Positions 14,222-60,937 of a DNA stretch of 64,000 nt are shown here, piece after piece (the stretch's first letter is position 1; each line of letters opens with the position of its first letter). The stretch comes from Squalus acanthias. Lineage: Eukaryota. Below the pieces are notes generated by a model. That model did not search any database and had not been told where the DNA came from. It was given only the letters and a program-made list of their open reading frames with translations. The position numbers and the translations under genes are program-made. Where the stretch lies: NCBI GenBank assembly GCA_030390025.1, contig CM059432.1:45262001-45326000 (forward strand), in the 5' to 3' direction.

Positions 14222-16316
14222 TATAAGAACATAAGAACATAAGAAATAGGAGCAGGAGTAGGCCAATCGGCCCCTCGAGCCTGCTCCGCCATTCAATAAG
14301 ATCATGGCTGATCTGATCCTAACCGCCAATCTACTATCTATCACAGAACCATCTCCTGCATCTAACAGAATTGCACACACGAAATAGGAGCAGAATCAGG
14401 CTACACAGTCCCTGGGCCCGCTCCACTACCCACAGGGCCATGACCGATCCGAACCTAGACTCATGTCCAAATTCCTGCCCGCTCCCCGTAACCCTTAATG
14501 CCCTTTACTTCTAGGAAACTGTCTATTTCTGTTTTAAATTTAATTAATGTTGTAGCTTCTACAGCTTTTTGTGGCAGCATATTCCATGGACCTACCACCC
14601 TCTGAGTGAAGTAGTTCCTCCTCATCTCAGTTTTGAAAGAGCAGCCCCTTATTCTAAGACTATGTCCCCTAGTTCTCGTCTCACCCGTCATCGGGAACAT
14701 CCTTCCCGCATCCACCCGATCCAACCCCTTCACAATCTTATATGTTTCAATAAGATCGCCTCTCATTCTTCTGAACTCCAATGAGTAGAGTCCCAATCTA
14801 CCCAACCTCTCCTCATATGACCACCCCCTCATCCCCGGGATTAACCGAGTGAACCTTTTTTGCACTGCCTCGAGAGCAAGGATGTCTTTCCTTAAGTAAG
14901 GACACCAAAACTGTATGCAGTATTCCAGGTGCGGTCTCACCAATACCTTGTACAACTGAAGCAATACCTCCCTATTTTTATATTCTATCCCCCTAGCAAT
15001 GAAAGCCAACATTCCATTTGCCTTCTTAATCACTTGCTGCACCTGCATACTAACCTTTTGAGTTTCGTGCACCAGGACCCCCAGATCCCTTTGCACTTCA
15101 GTACTCTCCAGTTTCTTGCCATTAAGATAATAAATTGCTCTAGGATTTTTCCTGCCAAAGTGCATCACCTCACACTTTCCAGTGTTGTATTCCATCTGCC
15201 AAATCTCTGCCCACTTACTTAGCCTGTCTATGTCCCCTTGCAGGTTTTTTATGTCCTCCTCACTCACTACTTTCCCTCCCATCTTTGTATCATCTGCAAA
15301 TTTTGATATGTTACACTTGGTCCCTTCCTCCAAATCGTTAATATAGATTGTGAAGAGTTGGGGACCCAGCACTGACCCCTGTGGAACACCACTAGTTACT
15401 GATTGCCAGTCTGAGAATGAACCATTTATCCCAACTCTTTGCTTTCTGTTAGATAGCCAATCCTCTATCCATGCCAGAATATTACCCCCAATCCCGTGAT
15501 TTTTTACCTTAAGCAATAATCTTTTGTGTGGCACCTTGTCAAATGCCTTTTGGAAGTCTAAATACACTACGTCCACTGGTTCCCCTTTATCCACTCTATA
15601 TGTTACTTCCTCAAAGAACTCCAGCAAATTTGTCAAACATGACTTCCCCTTCGTAAAACCATGCTGACTTTGTCCTATTAAATTATGATTATCCAAATGT
15701 CCTGTTACTGTTTCCTTAATAATGGACTCCAAAATTTTACCTACCACAGATGTTAGGCTAACCGGTCTATAGTTACCAGCCTTCTGTCTACTGCCCTTTT
15801 TAAATAAGGGTGTTACATTAGCAGTTTTCCAGTCTGCCGGGACCTTAGCGGAATCCAGGGAGTTTTGAAAAATTATTACCAATGCATCTACAATCCCTAC
15901 CGCCACTTCCTTCAAGACTCTAGGATGTAAGCCATCAGGTCCAGGTGATTTATCCGCCTTGAGTCCCATTATTTTACCGAGTACCACTTCCTTAGTGATT
16001 TTGATCGTGTTTAGCTCCTCTCCCCCTATAGCCCCCTGTTTGTCCAGTGTTGGGATATTCTTAGTGTCCTCTACTGTAAAGACTGATACAAAATATTCAT
16101 TCAGTGTTTTTGCCATCTCCATATTTCCCACCATTAATTTCCCGGTCTCATCCTCTAAGGGACCAACATTTACTTTAGCCACCCTTTTTCTTTTTATATA
16201 ACTATAAAAACTCTTACTATCTGTTTTTATATTTTTTGCTAATTTACTTTCATAATCTATCTTCCCTTTCTTAATCAATCTTTTTGTTATTTTTTGCTGC
16301 CTTTTAAAGTTTTGGT
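14222..16316 (-). mobile_element. Young 5'-truncated CR1 LINE with uninterrupted RT reading frame
   Basis: ORF 14461-16398 has full RT (SPGPDG, NYRPVSLTS, YLDFQKAFD, SGVPQGSVLGP, KFADD) with no stops; (TTCTTATG)n tail at 14222-14245. Confidence 0.95.
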
Positions 16317-16820
16317 AGATAATGGCAGCTGTCACTGATACAGAGGGGTCAAATAAGGCAATGGTGATATCACACCAAGAAGAGATGGAATGCAGCAAGT
16401 TCTTAAAAAAACAGTGAGGCTAAGGGCAAGATGCCATTTTCGCTAAGCTAATGGTGGAGCGGTGTAACTCGGACAGCAATTTTTGGATATTCACATTTAA
16501 CCGCACAATTGCTCTAAATGATGATTAATACTGTCGCTCAGAATTTTTCCAATAATTTTCCTACCACCGAGGTTAGGCTGACTGGCCTGTAATTGCTCGG
16601 TCTATCCCTTTCTGTCTTTTTCAACAATGGGTGCAACGTTAGCAGTCCTCCAGTCCTCAGGTACCACACCTGTAGCCAGAGAGGATTGGAAAATGATGGT
16701 CAGAGCCTTCGCTATTTCCTCCCTTGCTTCTCTTTACAGCCTGAGATGCATTTCATCCAGGCCTGGCAATCTATCTACTTTCAAAAATACTAAACCCCTT
16801 AATATTTCCTCTCTCACTAT

Positions 16821-37772: not shown

Positions 37773-38066
37773 TATATGTGACACACAGCAATGTGGTTGA
37801 CTCTTAACTGCCCTCTGAAATGGACACTCAGTTGTACCAAACCACTACCAAGAAGTATACTAAGAATAAAACCGGACGGATCACCCGGCATCAACCTAGG
37901 CACCGGACATGACAAAGGCACACCCAGCCAAGTCGACCTTGCAAATTCCTCCTCACTAACATCTGGGGACTTGTGCTAAAATTGGGAGCACTGTCCCGCA
38001 GACCAGTCAAGCAACAGCCTGACAGTCATACTCACAGAAACATACCTTTCAGCCAATGTCCCAGAC

Positions 38067-39733
38067 TGTAAGGGATTCCTGACCCTGCGTGTCTCGCAGC
38101 CTGTGAGATTCACGCGGCTCTGTGCAGCCTGTATGTCAGTGCGGGTCTAGGCCTGGTTGCCTGTTCTGGTCTCCAGCCAGTCTGGGAACACTAGACACAC
38201 CTGTGAGTGGTTCGAATCACTCTCCCTTACGGTTCTAGACACTGGACTTAGATGCGAGAGCAGTAATGGAGATAAAACTCATGTAGACTCGGTTTGAATG
38301 GTACGAAATGGAAAATCTTTATTGCATGATACTTAAAATTATGAAATACATGTCATAAGCACAGATTAATGACAGTACAATCTTACAAACAGTCATATAG
38401 TCGATCTTAGGGAAACGAGGAACGAACGGCACAAAGTAAATAGGGGCACACATTACAAATATCCTTAATCCTTAAACCCTCCCCTATCAATATCTATCCT
38501 AAACTAGATTCGTAGGATCTCGAGACTCATGCTCACCACTCGTGATAACTCGGAGAAATTCCGAATAGCTGATCGGATGTTTTTCACCGCAGCACCCACG
38601 TGTCGGTCAGGAGATCTCCTGGTCCCACTTGTTTACTTGCTTCTGCTGCTTCGGCTAGTAGGCTGGACCGTCTGCTGTGATGAAGACCTCTGTTGGTGGG
38701 TTTCACAGATCAGTCAATATCTCAAAGGAGAATCTTCCGGGGTCCGTTCTTTAAAGTTCAAAGAAGTCTTCCTGGCAAGGAGAAACTTGGCTGATCGACC
38801 TACAGGCGCGGTCGGGATTTACTGACCGTGGCGATGGATATGGTCTTCTTCTCTTCTCCTCTCATCTCATCTCATCTCATCTCATCTCGGGCCTTTGGTT
38901 CCGCTGCCAGTTACCAACATAGGTCTTCGTTACGCGACACGAGGTAGATCCGAACGGATCAGAAAGTTCAACAGTCTTTTCAGAAGAGGCAACAGGCAAG
39001 CAGAAGCCCAACTACGAGTACACAGGAGCAGCCACGAGGTTACGAATCGACCGGATAAAACACAGGAGCAAGCGAGCGAACGCAGGAGCAAGAGCAAGAG
39101 AGAGAATGGACGGTTTGGAGCCTGCAATTATAATGCAAAAATCTTCCGTTTCCCGCCCAACTATAATGTCCATTCTTTTGTTTAGGGTTTGGCGCCCAAA
39201 TGTCTTGTATGGGTGATCTCCGTTCTTAATGGGTTTCGGGGCTACTCATGAATGTTTGAGTACCTGTTAATATTTCTCCCATTGTTAAATCGGTCGGTGT
39301 TCTCCCTGGAGGGGTTTGGGGCTTCCAAGTGTCCTGTATAACTACCTGCTAACGGCTCTCTCATCGTAGAGTCGTTGGGAGTTTACATATTAATGTCCTT
39401 TGGATGGGCCCTTGAGTACTCGGTACAATGGCTTTCCTTTGTACCTGGGAGACCGATTCCAGTATCTATGTTTATACTGCAAACCCATAATGTCTCGTGT
39501 ATTATCTTCACTGTGCTGAATCGTTATCGATCTTGCACAAATGTTTAATGGAACGCCATCTTGTCTGCCTGTTGAAAAGTCTAGAATGTTCTGTCACGAG
39601 GTGCGGCGGCCATTTTACAGGCTGCTTGTGTCCAATTTAAACCTGCCAGCATTCTGCTGAAATAAAAGCTGTTTGAACGAAACTTTGTGTTTTCTCCTTA
39701 TTAATCAAATCGCGATATATTGCGAATTCTACA
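38067..39733 (-). repeat. 3' LTR (1,667 bp)
   Basis: Direct repeat of 44656-46322 (constant offset 6,589); TGTA...TACA ends; (TCTCA)n inside; minus-strand AATAAA at 38318-38323. Confidence 0.97.
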
Positions 39734-39745
39734 GTCCCTCCTGTT
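39734..39745 (-). other. Polypurine tract (plus-strand primer)
   Basis: Minus strand AACAGGAGGGAC directly abutting the TGT of the 3' LTR. Confidence 0.75.
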
Positions 39746-40159
39746 GATGCGAATAACTCCGCTTATCGTATCAAAAATCACAGTGGTGAGCAATCTTATC
39801 TCGATTTCACTCCGAATCCAGTAAATTAATCCCATAATTTTTAACTTAACTAGGGTCTCTGTGTCGTCCTTATTTCCCAAGAAAATCACATTTTATATCA
39901 CCGTAGGCATCATTTGCCCTTAAACTTACACCACTTGTTTTCCTTCCCGGCGTAACCAGGCCGATACCTCACGCATCACCTGTATATTTGTCTTTTATTC
40001 AGGGAAAGGAAAAAAAACAAAACCCAAAACCAAACAATCAACACCATCACCAAAATAATCAAACCCCAACTCTTAAAACATGTCGAGTTTCCAACGTATT
40101 TACAATGAGTACAAACTTCCGCGGCGCACGCGGCGAGCGGGAGTGACGCCATTTTCCGA

Positions 40160-41416
40160 TTACACGGTGCTCTCATCGTGCACGCGCACGTAACGTTCTC
40201 GCCACTCTCCCGTGTTTTCATGCTTGGTGAGGCGCTTGTCTCTTTTACAATGTATGACCAATAGGTACACTACAATAAACACTTGACAGACGACTAAAAT
40301 GTGGGAGGCTATTCTGATCCATGAAGGCACTTCAATATTCGTGAACAGATTCCACCACGGTGGAACCACTATGTCCAGAATGTCTGTTCCTATTTCGACA
40401 GTTTTCTGCTCTAATGTATAAAAATGTTTCTGTGATACCGCGACGGCTTTCAGAAGTTTGGTTAAATGCTCAGGGAGAGGGGGAATGAGGTAAAAGCAGT
40501 GAACGCATCGTTCACCAAACCCCTTCTTTGCCTCCCTACTTGATCCAAAACTTCCTGCGGTGCGGTGTACAAACTTGTAACATCTTGGTCAACAGGACCT
40601 GATACAACTGTTCCGTCTTTTTGGGGCACCACTCTGGTAACCGCACCTCAGTGAGATTTAAAATCACCGAGGCCACCGCGTAATGTACCCCCTGAAATAG
40701 TATCTGGTCTGTGGGGACCAGTACCAAACCGTTCCCGGGTCCCTTACTAGTTTTAGGGCACCCTTCTTCCTCAGCTAGAACCACCGGAATCGTGGGCGGG
40801 GCTTTGCGTGGGCGCGTAATGAGCTCAGTGGCATTTACTGGGATCGGGGAGAATGGGGCTCCGCACCCCCTGGTGCTCGCATCCCACCTCATCCCCTGTC
40901 CGTTATCCTGCCATTGATTACATAAATCCCCTCATCCGGTTCCCACCATTTGTCCCAACAGACTTTCACTTGTCCGTCTGTCCCCGTAATTGTCCGATGG
41001 GTATTATTACCCAGTCGTTCCCACTCGACCGAAGAGTTTCTCATAGTTTTGCTCAGCTTTCGCAGCCACCACCATCGGCTCAATGGGACATTCCCACTAC
41101 AGGTCAAACAAATCCGTTTGCCGACGGTGACGCTGATCCTGGGTGCGATGATCCTTACTTTGGGGCACATTAAAGAAGTCTCTTTGTAGGCAAACCCCGA
41201 TGTGCTGGAATACTCCGTTGAGTTCGTTCCCAGCCATCCTGGCCACCTTCCCTTGTGGAAATAGGTGCTGGTCCCCTCTGCCTTCCGTCTTCCGGTCCCA
41301 TCCACCGCGATGGGGGCCGTGTCCCCGGAACATCCAAACACCACGACATCCTTGGTGTGGCCTCGATAGGCCAATCCACATCCGATTGCCACGAGCAATA
41401 CTAGAATTCGTTCCAT
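40160..41416 (-). pseudogene. env: Envelope glycoprotein remnant (signal peptide, Ig-like domain, furin site, fusion peptide, TM); two frameshifts and an internal deletion
   Basis: MERILVLLVAIGCGLAY signal; N-glycosylation sequons NST, NSS, NNT, NAT, NLT; RQRR|GLVNDAFTAF at 40533-40492; PPWWNLF followed by ILVVCQVFIVVYLLVIHC and a basic tail; located just before the PPT. Confidence 0.8.
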
Positions 41417-41589
41417 CCTTCCTTGGTTCCTGTGATCAGATAGAATGAGGTAGCCAGCCTCGCAAAAGTCTCTGGCTTTTGTGAAGGGTGAGCGGGTCCC
41501 CTGACCTCGCCTCACGTAAACTTCAACGTTTGCTGCATAGACTTCCTCTAAACCTAGCCTTAAAACTCCCATCATTTTATCGTTTTCTG

Positions 41590-41700
41590 TTAAAAAACAC
41601 TACAAACTTAGCCTTATTAAAACTTAAAACTTAACCTTGACACTACAAACTTAAACTTAACCTTGAACTATAAACTTAAAACTTAAAACTAATAACTTTA
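41590..41700. repeat. Imperfect AAACTT(A)-based tandem repeat between ORF-X and env
   Basis: Repeated AAACTTA / AACCTTGA units. Confidence 0.8.
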
Positions 41701-41729
41701 CAGTGCCGCCCGTTCTCAGGGCGGCCCCT

Positions 41730-42839
41730 TTAAACTCTGAGAAGGCTGCTGCGAGCTCTTCCCGACGGTGGGAGGGCACTGACCCTTCCCTCTGATCTGC
41801 CGCAGCCTGTTACTGCTGCGATGTGGCCTGTCTGTACCCGGGTTATCTTAACCTGAAGTCTACGCCTTGGGGCAGTCTGGGGACATGACCACATCCTCCT
41901 GGGCTGGGGTTCTCTACTTGACCTACGGGGAGTTGCTATGGGCGGGGGTTCCGTGACGGACGGACCGGGTTCCGAGACCTCCAACGGGATGACCTGGGGT
42001 TCCATCACAGTCGCCGGCTCCGCCTCCGCTGACTCCGCCTCCCTAACCTCGGGGCTGGCAGTTCGTGGCTCCGCCCTGCTCGGCCCAGCAGGCGGCCCTT
42101 CACTCGTGATCTCTGCCTCCCCTGAGGACTGGACGTTCAAAGCGGGCGGCCACATCTCTGGGAGCCACATTGGTACTCTCTGTGCTCCTATAGCGGCTGG
42201 CCCTGCCTCCTCTAGCTCCTCCCTCCTGTCCTCGGGACCTGCAGCTTGTGTGTCCACCCTGTGTGGATCTCTACCTATAGGCCCCATTCCCCCCAGACCG
42301 TTCCTCAGGAACCACCCGTCATCATCACTATGCTCATCTGCACTATCCTCATCTGACCAGGGTACCCTGGGTTCTTCCTCATCTAACCCCCAACTCCAGA
42401 AAAACGCTGCATGATCGTCCGGGATGTCCCTTCCCCTGATGCAAGCTGCTATGCCTGCCTGTGTGCCTTGTGGTCCTACCTGGGGCTGTGCTTTCCCACT
42501 GGCGGGGTTTACCCCTGTAGTTTTCCCTTGCGCACCTGGCTGGTACAGTTTGCATTGGTTTACATCCTCATACTCCCGGCTTTTGGCTACCCTGTAGGCT
42601 GCTTTTATCTCACTAAGCTGCGCTTCTAGCCTGAGCACGTCTAACTTTCCCATTGATCGGGCGTTCTCCTCCCGCAGGGTCTGCTCTCTAAGCTGCCCTT
42701 CCAGCCCATCTATTTTCCCTATTAAGCGGGCGTTCTCCTCCCGCAGGGCCTGCTCTTTTAACCTGGCCTCCTCACCGCAGACCCCCTCCTGTGCGTGTCT
42801 TTTAAAAGGACACAGGTAGGCAGGCTGCGTGGGCTCTAG
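41730..42839 (-). CDS. ORF-X: 369-codon frame continuous with gag after its stop; coiled-coil repeat, acidic patch, Pro/Glu-rich region; function unknown
   Basis: Manual translation shows no stop from 42839 (LEPTQPAYLCPFKR...) into track ORF 41730-42653; no protease, RT, RNase H or integrase motifs. Confidence 0.65.
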   Translation of the reverse strand, partial: LEPTQPAYLCPFKRHAQEGVCGEEARLKEQALREENARLIGKIDGLEGQLREQTLREENARSMGKLDVLRLEAQLSEIKAAYRVAKSREYEDVNQCKLYQPGAQGKTTGVNPASGKAQPQVGPQGTQAGIAACIRGRDIPDDHAAFFWSWGLDEEEPRVPWSDEDSADEHSDDDGWFLRNGLGGMGPIGRDPHRVDTQAAGPEDRREELEEAGPAAIGAQRVPMWLPEMWPPALNVQSSGEAEITSEGPPAGPSRAEPRTASPEVREAESAEAEPATVMEPQVIPLEVSEPGPSVTEPPPIATPRRSSREPQPRRMWSCPQTAPRRRLQVKITRVQTGHIAAVTGCGRSEGRVSALPPSGRARSSLLRV

Positions 42840-44651
42840 TCATTGGGTACTATTAGACGGTCCTGCGGCACCTACGGGGCCGGTTGCGACCGCCACCTGT
42901 CCACGCGCATTCAAAACCAGCTTGCGCATGGCTCCTAACACTGCTTCGAGGTCGTCGGGAGGGGTGGGTGCCTTGGCTTCCTTAGCCGGGACAGGCGCCT
43001 GGGCTCGGACCGCGGGATTTTTATCCTTGGAATCCTTCCAAGGGTTCCTGCAGTGCTTGCGCCAGTGCCCTGTCTTCCCACACCCGTAACAAGCATTACT
43101 GGCTTGTGGGACGCGATTTCCCTCCTGATGCCACTCCTTTTGAGCCGGGGCTGCGGGTCGTACCTCATGTACTCTTCCCTTAAAGGGACGTGTCGTCATA
43201 CCCCTTATATTACGATAACCTAACGTGAGTCGATTCAAGACCGACTCTTCCGTAAGGTTGAGGTCATTGGGATCGAACCAGGCTTTTGCCTGCTCTCTAA
43301 CGGCTGGTAAACTGTTGGCTATTATGCACCTAAGCCAATGAGTTAGAGCGGCGCCTTCCACATCTTCGCGCTCGGGCGCACCTAGACAGCTGCGCTCATA
43401 TACTGGCCACAGCCTGTCGGCAAAAACCTTCGGGGGTTCTCCCTCCATCTGCACTGTCTGTCCCACTCTAGCAAACGGACCTCCGTCGTTCGCCCCCAAC
43501 ACTTCTAGGACCTCATTTTTTAATTCCTCATAACTTTTGTTTCCCCTCTTGCTCTCGCCTGAGAGACACTGAAGGACCGAGCTGTCTAATGAGAACAGCA
43601 GCATTTTTGCTGTCTCCCCATCATCGCAGCCGTTAATGGCTGCGGCTTGCTCAACTTCCCTGAAATGTACGGAAGGGTCGTCTATCTCGGTCAGCTTCCG
43701 TACGTGATTTATCATAGCTCTCAGCTGATGTGAACTGTGAGGCAACACCAGCTGTCCGAGGAGATCCCCCGGTTCTTCCCCACCGTTTCTGCTTGGGCCC
43801 CTTTTAATACCCGTTACTGGATACAACGATCCCTTTTCTGCTTCCTTTTCAATGGGCTTTTTCGTTTCTTCCATTGCTTCCTCCCTAACCCAGGTTTCTG
43901 AATAGCTGGGTGGCGCGGAGGGCGCAGTGGCTACTACTTCTTCTGCTTTACTTGGTGGGGATTTTCTAAATCTCTCATTTACTAGCGGCTGGTGCGCCGA
44001 CGGATTGATAAGGCACACCATGCCGTTCGCATTGTTCACGGCCTTTTTGAGGCTCTCTATCTCCCTTTGGCAGGCGCTATGGTCGGCTCCCTGAAACTTA
44101 TCCTCAAGGGCCAACTTATACGCCGACCTAACCCCCATTAAGCTCTCTTCTTGAGTTCTTATCTGGGCAGCTTGGCGGTTACATCTTTCCTTTAACCTGC
44201 TCTCATTCAATTTTGCCTCAGTGACCTGGCACTTGAGATAATCTATCCTTGTCTTAAGGTGACTGGAGACTTCCTGGCTTTCCTGGTGTAACTCATTTAA
44301 ATTCTTAATGAGCACCTCCCCTCCAGAAACCTTCTCCTCCATTTCTCCCTCTAAATGACTGATTCGAGCTGTTAGCGCTGTAATGGTCTGGTTTGAAATC
44401 TGAACCTGCCTTTTGTAGCACATAAGCCAGACTGCTTTCTCAACTGTCTTTTTATGTTCCTTACTATCTGTCCACCTTTCAGCTGCCTCTAGTGGGCTCT
44501 TATCCGCTAACAATTCACTTATCCACTTCTTAGTTAGATTAACCTTTCCAAACACATAATCCGCTATCTTTTCCTGCATAACATTTCGTACAGTCATTCC
44601 AAAATCTAACACACTACCCTCTCGCTGCCAGTGTCCTGCCGCGGTCGCCAT
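42840..44651 (-). CDS. gag: Gag polyprotein (~603 aa from the ATG at 44651)
   Basis: Intact ORF directly after 5' LTR/PBS; N-terminal coiled coil; PSAPPSY; capsid-like helical region; CYGCGKTGHWRKHC CCHC knuckle at 43050-43091. Confidence 0.92.
   Translation of the reverse strand: MATAAGHWQREGSVLDFGMTVRNVMQEKIADYVFGKVNLTKKWISELLADKSPLEAAERWTDSKEHKKTVEKAVWLMCYKRQVQISNQTITALTARISHLEGEMEEKVSGGEVLIKNLNELHQESQEVSSHLKTRIDYLKCQVTEAKLNESRLKERCNRQAAQIRTQEESLMGVRSAYKLALEDKFQGADHSACQREIESLKKAVNNANGMVCLINPSAHQPLVNERFRKSPPSKAEEVVATAPSAPPSYSETWVREEAMEETKKPIEKEAEKGSLYPVTGIKRGPSRNGGEEPGDLLGQLVLPHSSHQLRAMINHVRKLTEIDDPSVHFREVEQAAAINGCDDGETAKMLLFSLDSSVLQCLSGESKRGNKSYEELKNEVLEVLGANDGGPFARVGQTVQMEGEPPKVFADRLWPVYERSCLGAPEREDVEGAALTHWLRCIIANSLPAVREQAKAWFDPNDLNLTEESVLNRLTLGYRNIRGMTTRPFKGRVHEVRPAAPAQKEWHQEGNRVPQASNACYGCGKTGHWRKHCRNPWKDSKDKNPAVRAQAPVPAKEAKAPTPPDDLEAVLGAMRKLVLNARGQVAVATGPVGAAGPSNSTQ
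44633..44650 (-). promoter_or_regulatory. Primer binding site, tRNA-Arg(TCG)-type
   Basis: Minus strand TGGCGACCGCGGCAGGAC, 5 nt after the 5' LTR; complementary to the 3' 18 nt (GTCCTGCCGCGGTCGCCA) of vertebrate tRNA-Arg(TCG), recalled from memory. Confidence 0.85.
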
Positions 44652-44655
44652 TTTC

Positions 44656-46322
44656 TGGAAGGGATTCCTGACCCTGCGTGTCTCGCAGCCTGTGAGATTC
44701 ACGCGGCTCTGTGCAGCCTGTATGTCAGTGCGGGTCTAGGCCTGGTTGCCTGTTCTGGTCTCCAGCCAGTCTGGGAACACTAGACACACCTGTGAGTGGT
44801 TCGAATCACTCTCCCTTACGGTTCTAGACACTGGACTTAGATGCGAGAGCAGTAATGGAGATAAAACTCATGTAGACTCGGTTTGAATGGTACGAAATGG
44901 AAAATCTTTATTGCATGATACTTAAAATTATGAAATACATGTCATAAGCACAGATTAATGACAGTACAATCTTACAAACAGTCATATAGTCGATCTTAGG
45001 GAAACGAGGAACGAACGGCACAAAGTAAATAGGGGCACACATTACAAATATCCTTAATCCTTAAACCCTCCCCTATCAATATCTATCCTAAACTAGATTC
45101 GTAGGATCTCGAGACTCATGCTCACCACTCGTGATAACTCGGAGAAATTCCGAATAGCTGATCGGATGTTTTTCACCGCAGCACCCACGTGTCGGTCAGG
45201 AGATCTCCTGGTCCCACTTGTTTACTTGCTTCTGCTGCTTCGGCTAGTAGGCTGGACCGTCTGCTGTGATGAAGACCTCTGTTGGTGGGTTTCACAGATC
45301 AGTCAATATCTCAAAGGAGAATCTTCCGGGGTCCGTTCTTTAAAGTTCAAAGAAGTCTTCCTGGCAAGGAGAAACTTGGCTGATCGACCTACAGGCGCGG
45401 TCGGGATTTACTGACCGTGGCGATGGATATGGTCTTCTTCTCTTCTCCTCTCATCTCATCTCATCTCATCTCATCTCGGGCCTTTGGTTCCGCTGCCAGT
45501 TACCAACATAGGTCTTCGTTACGCGACACGAGGTAGATCCGAACGGATCAGAAAGTTCAACAGTCTTTTCAGAAGAGGCAACAGGCAAGCAGAAGCCCAA
45601 CTACGAGTACACAGGAGCAGCCACGAGGTTACGAATCGACCGGATAAAACACAGGAGCAAGCGAGCGAACGCAGGAGCAAGAGCAAGAGAGAGAATGGAC
45701 GGTTTGGAGCCTGCAATTATAGTGCAAAAATCTTCCGTTTCCCACCCAACTATAATGTCCATTCTTTTGTTTAGGGTTTGGCGCCCAAATGTCTTGTATG
45801 GGTGATCTCCGTTCTTAATGGGTTTCGGGGCTACTCATGAATGTTTGAGTACCTGTTAATATTTCTCCCATTGTTAAATCGGTCGGTGTTCTCCCTGGAG
45901 GGGTTTGGGGCTTCCAAGTGTCCTGTATAACTACCTGCTAACGGCTCTCTCATCGTAGAGTCGTTGGGAGTTTACATATTAATGTCCTTTGGATGGGCCC
46001 TTGAGTACTCGGTACAATGGCTTTCCTTTGTACCTGGGAGACCGATTCCAGTATCTATGTTTATACTGCAAACCCATAATGTCTCGTGTATTATCTTCAC
46101 TGTGCTGAATCGTTATCGATCTTGCACAAATGTTTAATGGAACGCCATCTTGTCTGCCTGTTGAAAAGTCTAGAATGTTCTGTCACGAGGTGCGGCGGCC
46201 ATTTTACAGGCTGCTTGTGTCCAATTTAAACCTGCCAGCATTCTGCTGAAATAAAAGCTGTTTGAACGAAACTTTGTGTTTTCTCCTTATTAATCAAATC
46301 GCGATATATTGCGAATTCTACA
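44656..46322 (-). repeat. 5' LTR (1,667 bp)
   Basis: Near-identical to 38067-39733; putative minus-strand TATAAT at 45716-45721 with a GC/GT box ~25 nt upstream. Confidence 0.97.
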
Positions 46323-49300
46323 AGACTCCTCCATCAACATCCCTGGGTATGTCCTGTGATGACGGCACAGGGTGTGTCCCTGGAAGTCCTCAACATTGAC
46401 TCCGGACCCCATGAAGTCTCATGGCATCAGATCAAACATGGGCAGGGAAACCTCCTGCTGATTACCACCTACCACCCTCCCTCAGCTGATGAATCAGTAC
46501 TCCTCCGTGTTGAACACCACTTGGAAGAAGCACTGAGGCAAGGGCACAGAACGTACTCTGGGTGGGAGGACTTCAATGTGCATCATCAAGAGTGGCTCGC
46601 TAACACCACTACTGACCGAGCTGGCTAAGTCCTGAAGGATATAGTTGCCAGACTGGGCCTGTGGCAGGCGGTGAGAGAACCAACACAAGGGAACTAGACC
46701 TTATCCTCACCAATCTACCTGTCACAGATGCATCTGTCCATGACAATATTGGTAGGAGTGACCAACACACCGTCCTTGTGGAGTCGAAGTCCCGTCTTCA
46801 CACTGAGGACACACTCCATCGTATTGTGTGGCACTACTACTGTGCTAAATGGGATTGATTCATAATAGATCTAGCAGCTCAAAACTGGGCATCCATCAGG
46901 CACTGTGGGCCATCAGCAGCAGCAGAATTGTATTCCACCACAATCTGTAACCTCATGGCCCGGCATATCCCTCACTCTACCATTACTATCAAGCCAGGGG
47001 ACCAACTGTGGTTCAATGAAGAGTGTAGAAGAGCTTGCCAGGAGCAGCACCAGGCGTACCTAAAACTGAAGCTACAACACAGGAATACATACATGCTAAA
47101 CAGCATGCTATAGACAGAGCAAAGCGATCCCCCCACCAATAGATCAGATCAAAGCTTTGCAGTCCTGCCACATCAAATCATGAATGGTGGTGGAAAATTA
47201 AAGAACTAACGGGAGGCGGAGGCTCCATGAATATCCCCATCCTCAATGATGGGGGAGCCCAGCACGTGAATGCAAAAGACAAGGCTGAAGCATTCACAAC
47301 CATCTTCAGCCAGAAGTGCCGAATAGATAATCTATCTCAGCCTCCTCCTGAGGTCCCCACCATCACAGAAGCCAGTCTTCAGCCAATTTGATTCATTCCA
47401 TGTGCTATCAAGAAACGGCTGAGCGCACTGGATACAGCAAAGGCTATGGGCCCCAACAACATCCCGGTTGTCATGCTGAAGACTTGTGCTCCAGAACTAG
47501 CCGCACTTCTAGCCAAGTTGCTCCAGTACAGGTACAACACTGGCATCTACCCGACAATGTGGAAAATTGCCCAGGTATGTTCCGTCCACAGAAAGCAGGA
47601 CAAATCCAATCTGGCAAATTACCACCCCATCAGTCTACTCTCAATCATCAGCAAAGTGATGGAAGGTGTCGTTGACAGTGCTATCAAGCAGCACTTACTC
47701 ACCAAAGCTCACCAATGCTCAGTTTGAGTTCCGCCAAGACCACTCGGCTCCAGACCACATTACAGCCTTGGTCCAAACATGGACAATAGAGCTGAATTCC
47801 AGAGATGAGGTGAGAGTGACTGTCCTTGACATCAAGGCAGCATTTGACCGAGTGTAGCATCAAGGAGCCCTAGTAAAATTGAAGTCAATGGGAATCGGGG
47901 GAAAACTCTACACTGGCTGGAGTCATACCTAGCACAAAGGAAGATGGTTGTGGTTGTTGGAGGCCAATCATCACAGCTCCAGGACATCAGTGCAGGAGTT
48001 CCTCAGAGCAGTGTCCAGGCCCAACCATCTTCAGTTGCTTCATCAATGACCTTCCCTCCATCATAAGGTCAGAAGTGGGGATGTTCGCTGATGATTGCAC
48101 AGTGTTCAGTTGCATTTGCAACTCTCAGATAATGAAGCAGTCCGTGCCCGCATGCAGCAAGATCTGGATGACATTCAGGCTTGGGCTGATAAGTGGCAGG
48201 TAACATTCGTACCACACAAGTGCCAGGCAATGACTATCTCTAACAACAGAGAGTCTAACCACTTCCCCTTGACATTCAACGGCATTACCATCGGCGAATC
48301 CCCCACCATCAACATCCCGGGGGTCACCATTGACCAGAAACTTAACTGGACCAACCACATAAATACTGTGGCTACAAGAGCAGGTCAGAGACTGGTTATT
48401 CTGCGGCAAGTAACTCACCTCCTGACTCTCCAAAGCCTTTCCACCATCTACAAGACACAGGTCAGGAGTGTGATGGAATACTCTCCACTTGCCCGCATGA
48501 GTGCTGCTCCAACAACTCTCAAGAATCTCAACACCATCCAGGACAAAGCAGCCCACTTGAATGGCACCCCATCCACCACCCCAAACATTCATTCCCTCCA
48601 CCACTGGCACACTGTGGCTGCAGTGTGTACCATACAAGATGCACTGCAGCAACTCGCCAAGGATTCTTCAACAGCATCTCCCAAACTCGTGACCTCTACC
48701 AGCTAGAAGGACAAGGGCAGCAGGCACATGGGAACACCATCACTTCCAAGTTCGCCTCCAAGTCACACAGCATCCTGACTTGGAAATATATCGCCATTCC
48801 TTCATCGTCGCTGTGTCAAAATCCTGGAACTCCCTCCCTAACAGCACTGTGGGAGTACCTTCACCACACGGACTGCAGCGCTTCAAGAAGGTGGCTTACC
48901 AATGCCTTCTCAAAGGCAATTAGGGATGGGCAATAAATGCTGGTGGTGCCAGCGATGCCCTCATCTCATCAACGAATAAAAAAGACATAAAAGTCAATGT
49001 TGCAGCATTATTTAAAATGTTTGCTTGTGTATGCAATGTACCCCATCACTCATTTAATTACTTGTTTTAATTACAAACTCTCTTCCATATAGCATTTTTA
49101 ACAGCTGCCAATGGATAGCCGACAGCAATTCCAAGAACTTCCATTTACGATAAAGATATTGTGAAATTATTTTTATATACAAATTACCTGCACTTGTTAA
49201 TCCTGTACATGTTAATCCTTTAAATGTAAATTTGTATTTACAGGGACAGTTGCTTGGAGTGTGGCAAAGTATTCAGCATATGTACAAACAGGGAAATAAT

Positions 49301-60266: not shown

Positions 60267-60937
60267 TGCGGAGATGCCGGTGTTGGACTGGGGTGGACAA
60301 AAGTGAGAAGTCGCACAACACCAGGTTATAGTCCAACAGTTTTATTTGAAATCACAAGCTTTCGGAGCTGCTGCTCCTTCGTCAGGTGAAGTGAAGGAAT
60401 ACGAATCGGCAAAGCATATATAGACAGAGAACAATGCCTGTGCAGCGTACAATGTCAGACGACTACAGTTAATCTTTCTGACTGCCTTTTATCACACCTC
60501 GGCAGAGAGACAATCAGGTCAGTCAGGAAGGCACCACATCAAAGACATAGCAAGATACAACTAAGACAATGAGGTGGGGTCTCAGGGGGTCTAATGTGTC
60601 AAATGCTGCAGTCTGTATGGAAAACCATAAACTGTGATTTCCAGTAAAAAAAAGTAAAAAGTTTAAAGTTTAAAGACATATCTTGCTATGTCTTTGATAT
60701 AATGCCTTCCTGACTGACCTGATTGTTTCTCTGCCGAGGTGTGATAAAAGGCAGTCAGAAAGATTAACTGTAGTCGTCTGACATTGTACGCTGCACAGGC
60801 ATTGTTCTCTGTCTATATATGCTGCGCCGATTCGTATTCTTTCACTTCACCTGACGAAGGAGCAGCAGCTCCGAAAGCTTGTGATTTCAAATAAAACTGT
60901 TGGACTATAACCTGGTGTTGTGCGACTTCTCACTTTT
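60267..60937. mobile_element. Penelope-like fold-back element with 259-bp inverted arms
   Basis: Arms 60299-60557 and 60679-60937, 121-bp spacer; TSD-like TTATAAAAGA (60257-60266 / 60936-60945). Confidence 0.75.
60847..60884 (+). ncRNA. Minimal type I hammerhead ribozyme (mirror copy on - strand at ~60352-60389)
   Basis: TCAC-CTGACGA-A-GGAGC(AGCA)GCTCC-GAAAGCTT-GTGA: CUGANGA and GAAA core, stem II, stem I TCAC/GTGA, palindromic AGCT in place of stem III. Confidence 0.75.

Follow-up and report, generated by a model that had tools for sequence, protein, structure and literature searches.

A candidate gag-pol readthrough signal kept by a pol-less retrovirus-like element of the shark Squalus acanthias

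We analysed a 64,000-nt stretch of the Squalus acanthias genome (GenBank assembly GCA_030390025.1, contig CM059432.1, positions 45,262,001 to 45,326,000; hereafter the window, with coordinates counted from its first letter) that carries on its minus strand a retrovirus-like element of ~8.3 kb. The gag gene of this element ends in a TGA followed directly by CTAG and by 369 further open codons in the same phase, which we call open reading frame X (ORF-X). With moderate confidence we read this UGA-CUAG as an ancestral gag-pol readthrough signal, inherited by an element that would now depend on helpers, and the Gag-X fusion that it would yield as a by-product. That readthrough takes place, the rate at which it does so and the lack of a function for Gag-X are what we infer.

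The gag stop codon and the open frame behind it

The TGA occupies positions 42842-42840 on the minus strand in the context ...ACC CAA TGA CTA GAG..., giving the heptamer UGA-CUAG (42836-42842). UGA-CUA alone leads to 1.5% readthrough in HEK-293T cells (PMC4132726), and CUAG raises readthrough beyond CUA in some contexts (PMC4132726; PMC13517186). The frame upstream of the TGA measures 631 codons from stop to stop and 603 when counted from the ATG at 44651, and the frame behind it (42839-41730) holds 369 sense codons, so that decoding of the TGA would yield a Gag-X of 603+1+369 = 973 codons. An earlier annotation of the window, the sequence-only reading, had described a gag stop in this context with 369 open in-frame codons behind it and predicted from it a fusion of ~970 aa; the stop context and the open frame were borne out, the arrangement lying above chance by counts in the window and by shuffling. 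CTA directly follows 18 of the 2458 TGA triplets in the window and CTAG four of them; TGACTA terminates a single one of the 95 stop-to-stop frames of at least 100 codons, namely the gag frame, which is also the sole one of the 95 with an open frame of at least 200 codons behind it. None of 3000 dinucleotide shuffles of the ORF-X DNA stayed open over 369 codons (longest, 234).

A possible stem-loop begins 6 nt behind the stop (42770-42833, minus strand; -28.0 kcal/mol), with its 5′ arm in the first codons of ORF-X, the pol leader, and its 3′ arm in the filler described below. The structure is statistically weak: judged as a single sequence with no covariation alignment, it reached a z of -2.3 in a 70-nt window tailored to it and of -0.8 to -1.9 in longer windows, and it ranked sixth among 70 sliding windows. 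Within this region the filler opens with 40 nt that repeat the pol leader imperfectly in inverted orientation; they may be native protease sequence retained across a shortened loop or the fold-back product of a rearrangement. Decoding of the UGA as in selenoproteins was rejected, since no selenocysteine insertion sequence is among the six weak Rfam matches in 38000-46400. The UAG-GGC gag-pol context of the snakehead-retrovirus type is absent at the gag stop, which has UGA-CUAG instead.

The composition of ORF-X

The make-up of ORF-X was read from related contigs, those of four of the 24 listed runs (X2 and X8, organism label A; X11, label B; X10, label C) being placed on 41300-43500. All four runs consist of contigs, their RNA labels are guesses, and contig depth was not used as copy number. 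Of the loose ends at which contigs leave the element, 24 of 159 were considered, with frames and motifs at the junctions read by eye over 30 letters per end.

To judge from these junctions, ORF-X is the pol frame itself, composed of 11 codons of pol leader, a 245-nt Gag-helix filler and 277 codons of integrase tail. The leader (codons 1-11, 42808-42839) is common to related contigs of X8, X11 and X10 that then diverge: at the first junction, J1, they depart at 42808 within codon 11, after ...AYLCP (three of the four runs, among the loose ends considered). Past J1 these contigs stay in the frame of ORF-X with sense codons only over 30 letters, the versions of X8 and X11 differing by synonymous or conservative changes alone. 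These versions contain W-x-R-P, which may correspond to the first strand of retroviral proteases; a scan of the locus for this motif found nothing. At the second junction, J2 (42562/42563, codon 93), contigs of X2, X11 and X10 join in the frame of ORF-X (again three of the four runs) and complete the motif K-W-x-H-x-N-Q-x-K-x-Y, which closes the integrase of the lokiretrovirus Loki-Pma. Codons 93-369 with the TAA (41730-42562) hold the end of this integrase C-terminal motif and a tail rich in proline, glutamate, glycine and alanine that lacks a confident fold. The contigs at J1 and those at J2 form two sets that may not belong to one element, and the 30 letters at each end suggest that the diverging contigs are pol-bearing helpers.

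Between the two junctions lies the filler (codons 12-92, 42563-42807), which has two predicted helices and an internal 75-nt tandem duplication and resembles the coiled coil of Gag proteins. Against a profile built from 14 Gag homologues it attains 23.3 bits, a score equalled by none of 1000 shuffles and none of 1000 heptad-block shuffles; the best shuffle scored 21.0, which leaves a modest margin above a generic coiled coil. The best pairwise Gag matches of the filler are the proteins P0010, P0039 and P0012. At the DNA level it does not match the gag of the element itself, which suggests as donor another Gag or an old copy, and BLASTP of X against its own Gag gave no significant match. A single-sequence model of X contains confident helices at residues 20-60 and 65-93 and little else, the pLDDT (predicted local distance difference test) staying below 50 for 262 of the 369 residues. 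No homologue of X was found among 8000 candidates, and the ESM Atlas returned only low-score unnamed clusters; a weak search among proteins of 1100-3140 residues gave no long Gag-Pol form. DNA of relatives was found neither in viral contigs (one 13-residue knuckle match) nor in metagenome contigs nor in genome contigs (one 17-residue chance match).

These parts bear on the further claim of the sequence-only reading that the signal probably once produced Gag-Pol and that an in-frame deletion may then have rewired it to a downstream gene, with ORF-X rather than pol in frame. A deletion that joined the site to a separate, pre-existing gene would fit a long open frame with no pol family match. Against such a gene, the contigs that enter at codon 93 do so from an integrase motif and in phase, so that codons 93-369 read as pol tail, codons 12-92 are Gag-helix-like, and there is no sign of an independent gene; this explanation is largely refuted, and we consider it extremely improbable. 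The rest of the claim survives in modified form. The site very probably is an old gag-pol site, and the junction is in frame just after a short pol leader and common to copies (see the bridging contigs below), but a plain deletion does not describe it, as the enzyme core was replaced by the filler. The junction had been placed slightly too far on, the divergence setting in after codon 11 (42808), three codons ahead of the 'FKR' named earlier.

The same stop context in lokiretroviruses

In the supplement of the paper on lokiretroviruses (Wang and Han 2020, PMC7947760), read by eye over a portion with 14 pol headers for 24 species, the consensus sequences are related and not independent. Seven gag or smc-gag genes are annotated there apart from pol, and six of them end in TGA-CTA, as CTAG in Ofa, Pyo and Sau and as CTAA in Bsp, Dcl and Lro; in the seventh, Tfu, the corresponding position is an X with Leu-Ser behind it. 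Cne, for which no gag is annotated, also reads TGA-CTAG at this position. From there the frame is free of stops as far as the annotated pol start, which lies 2 to 43 codons downstream, in Ofa, Pyo, Sau, Cne, Dcl and Lro; in Bsp the TGA-CTA and the shared leader motif are in one frame and the annotated pol start is in another. The annotated pol starts are mostly TTG or CTG at scattered distances and are probably annotation artefacts.

It is thus likely that UGA-CUA(G/A) serves as a conserved gag-pol readthrough signal of teleost lokiretroviruses, apparently an unreported one. The main text of the paper contains neither 'readthrough' nor 'stop codon' (PMC7947760). In the literature searched, which lay outside subscription papers, Repbase notes and preprint supplements, no report links lokiretroviruses with stop-codon readthrough: the 'read-through' of one lokiretrovirus paper refers to transcripts, and the available passages of other papers citing lokiretroviruses show none. 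A 2026 review of readthrough in animal viruses has no 'loki' in the part available, and the retrovirus contexts listed in it differ (PMC13517186).

The opposing explanation is that no meaningful readthrough takes place, pol or X being translated from a spliced RNA or from its own start and UGA-CUA being kept for another reason, e.g., a leader peptide. It can draw on the annotation of pol as a separate gene (PMC7947760), on an ATG at codon 63 of X, on the weak statistics of the hairpin and on the fact that readthrough at this gag stop is predicted from sequence only. It has difficulty with the mostly TTG or CTG pol starts scattered behind an in-frame TGA-CTA, with the rarity of CTA behind TGA in the window, and with the recurrence of the same TGA and the same Leu codon CTA in seven consensus sequences and here, which fits a nucleotide-level signal. 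We regard it as very improbable.

Extending a loki-type signal to the shark element is less secure than for the teleost elements, as membership is likely only. The stop context and the integrase motif make it likely that the element is a lokiretrovirus, there being no reverse transcriptase (RT) for a tree. Snakehead-type endogenous retroviruses (ERVs) are also present in cartilaginous fish (elephant-shark lineage I; PMC4422223); together with the absent RT, the broken Env and a CCHC knuckle in Gag, this means that membership is not established.

Sharing among copies, variants and selection

Two contigs span both the stop and J1, namely X8 record 29 (42623-42874) and X11 record 14 (42672-42878), so that the junction is common to copies, as the sequence-only reading had expected. 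Each has two differences, at 42680 and 42746, which leave the stop context intact. The filler is covered in all four runs, and X8 record 30 has it with 19 differences in 163 letters (about 12% diverged). A variant found in all four runs is a tandem duplication of 39 nt (41816-41779), in frame and close to where ORF-X ends. This copy differs from nearly all contigs at several sites (e.g., 41466, 41735, 41896, 42746, 43111, 43346), more than its near-identical long terminal repeats (LTRs) would lead one to expect, and it may be a member of a minor subfamily. Runs under five organism labels contain at least half of the words found in 39700-44700. In the filler region, contigs of label A match those of label B without a difference over about 200 nt, as with close species, relabelled samples or a recent transfer.

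For the variant test, 40 of 178 rows were taken, of which 34 lie in gag or X; the six rows in env and the spacer were excluded. The variants listed for X comprise five synonymous and 13 non-synonymous changes and no stops, with a ratio of non-synonymous to synonymous polymorphism (pN/pS) of 0.86-1.09 at low power, and those listed for the 3′ part of gag comprise eight of each kind (pN/pS 0.33-0.42; p 0.02-0.056 against neutrality). There is no sign of protein-level constraint on X in these variants, at low power. None of the joints of 58, 68, 125, 614, 850 and 854 nt has a length divisible by three; given the unknown letters between, they were left out of the count of frameshifts, and the one of 58 nt (X11, X10) may be a stretch in which relatives have diverged.

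Several observations weigh against a merely inherited signal with a Gag-X by-product. Pma and Pfl are annotated as continuous gag-pol and Loki-Pma has no stop, so that the signal is not universal in lokiretroviruses (PMC7947760); in records other than these and those named above, a gag-pol junction was not located. The diverged contig with filler implies a pol-less form older than this copy. The difference in pN/pS between X and gag falls short of significance (Fisher p 0.29), and private, family and helper variants are pooled in it. The filler, its 75-nt duplication, the 39-nt duplication and a 3-nt deletion all keep the frame of X, in which no uncompensated 1-nt indel is listed (those at 41910 and 41913 in X8 cancel), and five indel rows are listed in the AT-rich spacer behind X. 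Such in-frame rearrangements point to frame maintenance, contrary to pure passenger status.

One way to account for this would be selection for Gag-X as a product acting in cis, e.g., by co-assembly with Gag via the extra helices, favouring packaging or mobilisation of the pol-less RNA. This would agree with the frame being kept through all common rearrangements of X and with a filler that stands in a Gag-like reading frame, forms two confident helices and recurs in every run, and the mouse IAP 1-delta-1 gag-pol fusion, which acts in cis, provides a precedent (PMC6466679). That fusion is made at full level, however, compared with a product of 1% to a few percent here; moreover, pN/pS is near 1 among the variants listed (low power, with three variants in the filler), most of X is modelled without confidence, and two rare joints in X2 (42416-43031 and 42416-43271) delete the stop site altogether. 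On balance, we find a selected Gag-X doubtful.

Selection could also act on the RNA, in that ribosome transit past the gag stop would protect the unspliced RNA, with its 4.5-kb 3′ region, from nonsense-mediated decay (PMC5360307). The distance to the AATAAA is 4518 nt from the gag stop and 3408 nt from the X stop, so that any protection would be partial. The absence of stops from the 18 X variants is uninformative, 0.7-0.8 being expected, and the indel-rich spacer is AT-rich and repetitive and hence a poor neutral control. We hold this explanation to be more doubtful still than a selected Gag-X.

We return to an inherited signal as the favoured reading and picture its operation as follows. On the unspliced RNA, most ribosomes would stop at the UGA and release Gag, and a small share, on the order of 1% to a few percent, would decode the UGA via a near-cognate tRNA and continue. 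In enzyme-bearing relatives this would produce Gag-Pol. In the present lineage, the protease-RT-RNase H-integrase core would have been replaced in frame by the 245-nt piece of Gag-type coiled coil, so that readthrough would instead extend Gag into the 973-residue Gag-X, which would lack any enzyme and carry two additional helices along with a long, disordered tail of integrase origin. Pol would have to be supplied to the element in trans by relatives, and the signal and the open frame would persist mainly through inheritance within a young family.

Structure of the element and its surroundings

The element is a young non-autonomous (pol-less) LTR retrovirus-like element of 8256 nt, with two LTRs, a target-site duplication, a primer-binding site and a polypurine tract and without enzyme domains. 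Its LTRs of 1667 nt each differ at three of the 1667 sites. On the minus strand, the 5′ LTR (TG...CA) lies at 44656-46322, flanked by the target-site copy GTCT at 46326-46323, and the 3′ LTR lies at 38067-39733, with an AATAAA at 38323 and the other GTCT copy at 38066-38063. The primer-binding site (44633-44650), presumably a match to tRNA-Arg, follows 5 nt behind the LTR, and a polypurine-tract-like stretch (39734-39745) precedes the 3′ LTR. The start codon of gag, which lies in a strong context for initiation, shares bases with the beginning of the primer-binding site (44651-44633); two close relatives of this Gag likewise begin with M-A-T. Searches for protease, RT, RNase H and integrase families gave no match in any of the six element proteins.

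By homology and predicted structure, the 603 codons of gag (42840-44651, ending in the TGA) encode an N-terminal coiled coil, a capsid and one CCHC knuckle. The knuckle matches retroviral nucleocapsids, and the Gag model is capsid-like, its best Foldseek matches being Gag of a walleye virus and of a toad ERV at 12-16% identity. The combination of a coiled coil with a retroviral-type capsid is not specific to lokiretroviruses. Named Gag relatives come from skate (51%), catshark, horn shark and Xenopus, in keeping with a cartilaginous fish as host, and three full-length close relatives terminate at about the same column as this Gag. In the skate annotation, several copies of the Gag family are entered as uncharacterized host genes (proteins P0003 and P0005-P0007).

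The env region (40160-41599) consists of three overlapping open frames (41599-40889, 40931-40536 and 40588-40160). At only about 1.4 kb it is broken in this copy, and its first piece has a weak immunoglobulin-domain match (E 0.12). The F-type Env family PF00523 gave no match for the three pieces of this broken env, and the PDB gave none for one piece.

Elsewhere in the window, an open frame of 652 codons at 14461-16419 (minus strand), inside a repeated region, is probably a retroelement frame, and an inverted repeat at 60299-60937 has 259-nt arms that are 97% complementary and 121 nt apart.

Implications and comparison with known systems

Published work places lokiretroviruses as sister to all retroviruses sampled; how they express Pol is left open in the papers searched. 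The shared UGA-CUA(G/A) points to readthrough at the lokiretrovirus gag-pol border by means of a motif of alphaviruses and vertebrate genes, and it is relevant to the question which route to retroviral Pol is the older, that of readthrough, of frameshifting or of splicing. UGA readthrough between gag and pol is reportedly also used by a Candida retrotransposon. What might have been a new Gag-X gene reduces to a pol remnant, which would matter only under selection for the fusion or for its translation, and the large young family offers a direct test of such selection. A wider scenario, in which UGA-CUA readthrough is ancestral to loki-type retroviruses from sharks to bony fish and is kept under selection here, together with the hairpin, for a minor cis-acting Gag-X that gives the element an edge over its helper, seems to us unlikely.

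Like the shark element, lokiretroviruses have a Gag with coiled coil and capsid and a TGA-CTA(G/A) that separates gag from a pol in the same frame, in six of the seven annotated gag genes and in Loki-Cne (PMC7947760). The integrase end K-W-x-H-x-N-Q-x-K is, by eye, common to this element, Loki-Pma and Loki-Dcl, which is supporting evidence and not a published criterion. In contrast to lokiretroviruses, whose reported hosts exclude cartilaginous fishes (PMC7947760), this element has a CCHC knuckle in Gag and a different pol leader sequence, and its integrase tail extends about 270 codons past the motif, compared with about 10 in Loki-Pma.

In gamma- and epsilonretroviruses, SSSV, snakehead retrovirus and ERVs of fish and frogs, as in the arrangement proposed here, a single leaky stop behind the nucleocapsid knuckle divides gag from a pol in the same frame. 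The contexts given for them are UAGGGA, UAGGGC, UGAAGA, UGACGA and UGAAGU; in the part of the review available, UGACUA appears under alphaviruses, a triatovirus, PSIV and cellular genes and under no retrovirus (PMC13517186). The type II UGA-CUA(G) sites of alphaviruses and of OPRL1 and AQP4 have the same 7-nt context and a possible 3′ stem-loop (PMC4132726; PMC13517186). They differ from the present site in that the latter lies at a retroviral gag-pol border, has a hairpin spacer of 6 nt instead of 8 or more and is known from sequence alone.

Among non-autonomous elements, zebrafish BHIKHARI (Bik-1 and Bik-2; PMC12067270), a pol-less relative of lokiretroviruses, is likewise young, encodes a Gag of ~600 residues with an N-terminal coiled coil and needs the enzymes of a partner; it has a single gag ORF and a glycine-rich patch in place of the CCHC knuckle, and pol remnant, env and readthrough are not mentioned in the text available. 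The mouse IAP 1-delta-1 (PMC6466679) is also a non-autonomous, internally deleted element with an in-frame gag-pol remnant that forms a successful, helper-needing family. Its deletion takes part of gag and fuses the remainder to pol without a stop, whereas in the shark element gag is whole, the putative leaky stop is retained and a Gag-like filler stands in for the enzyme core.

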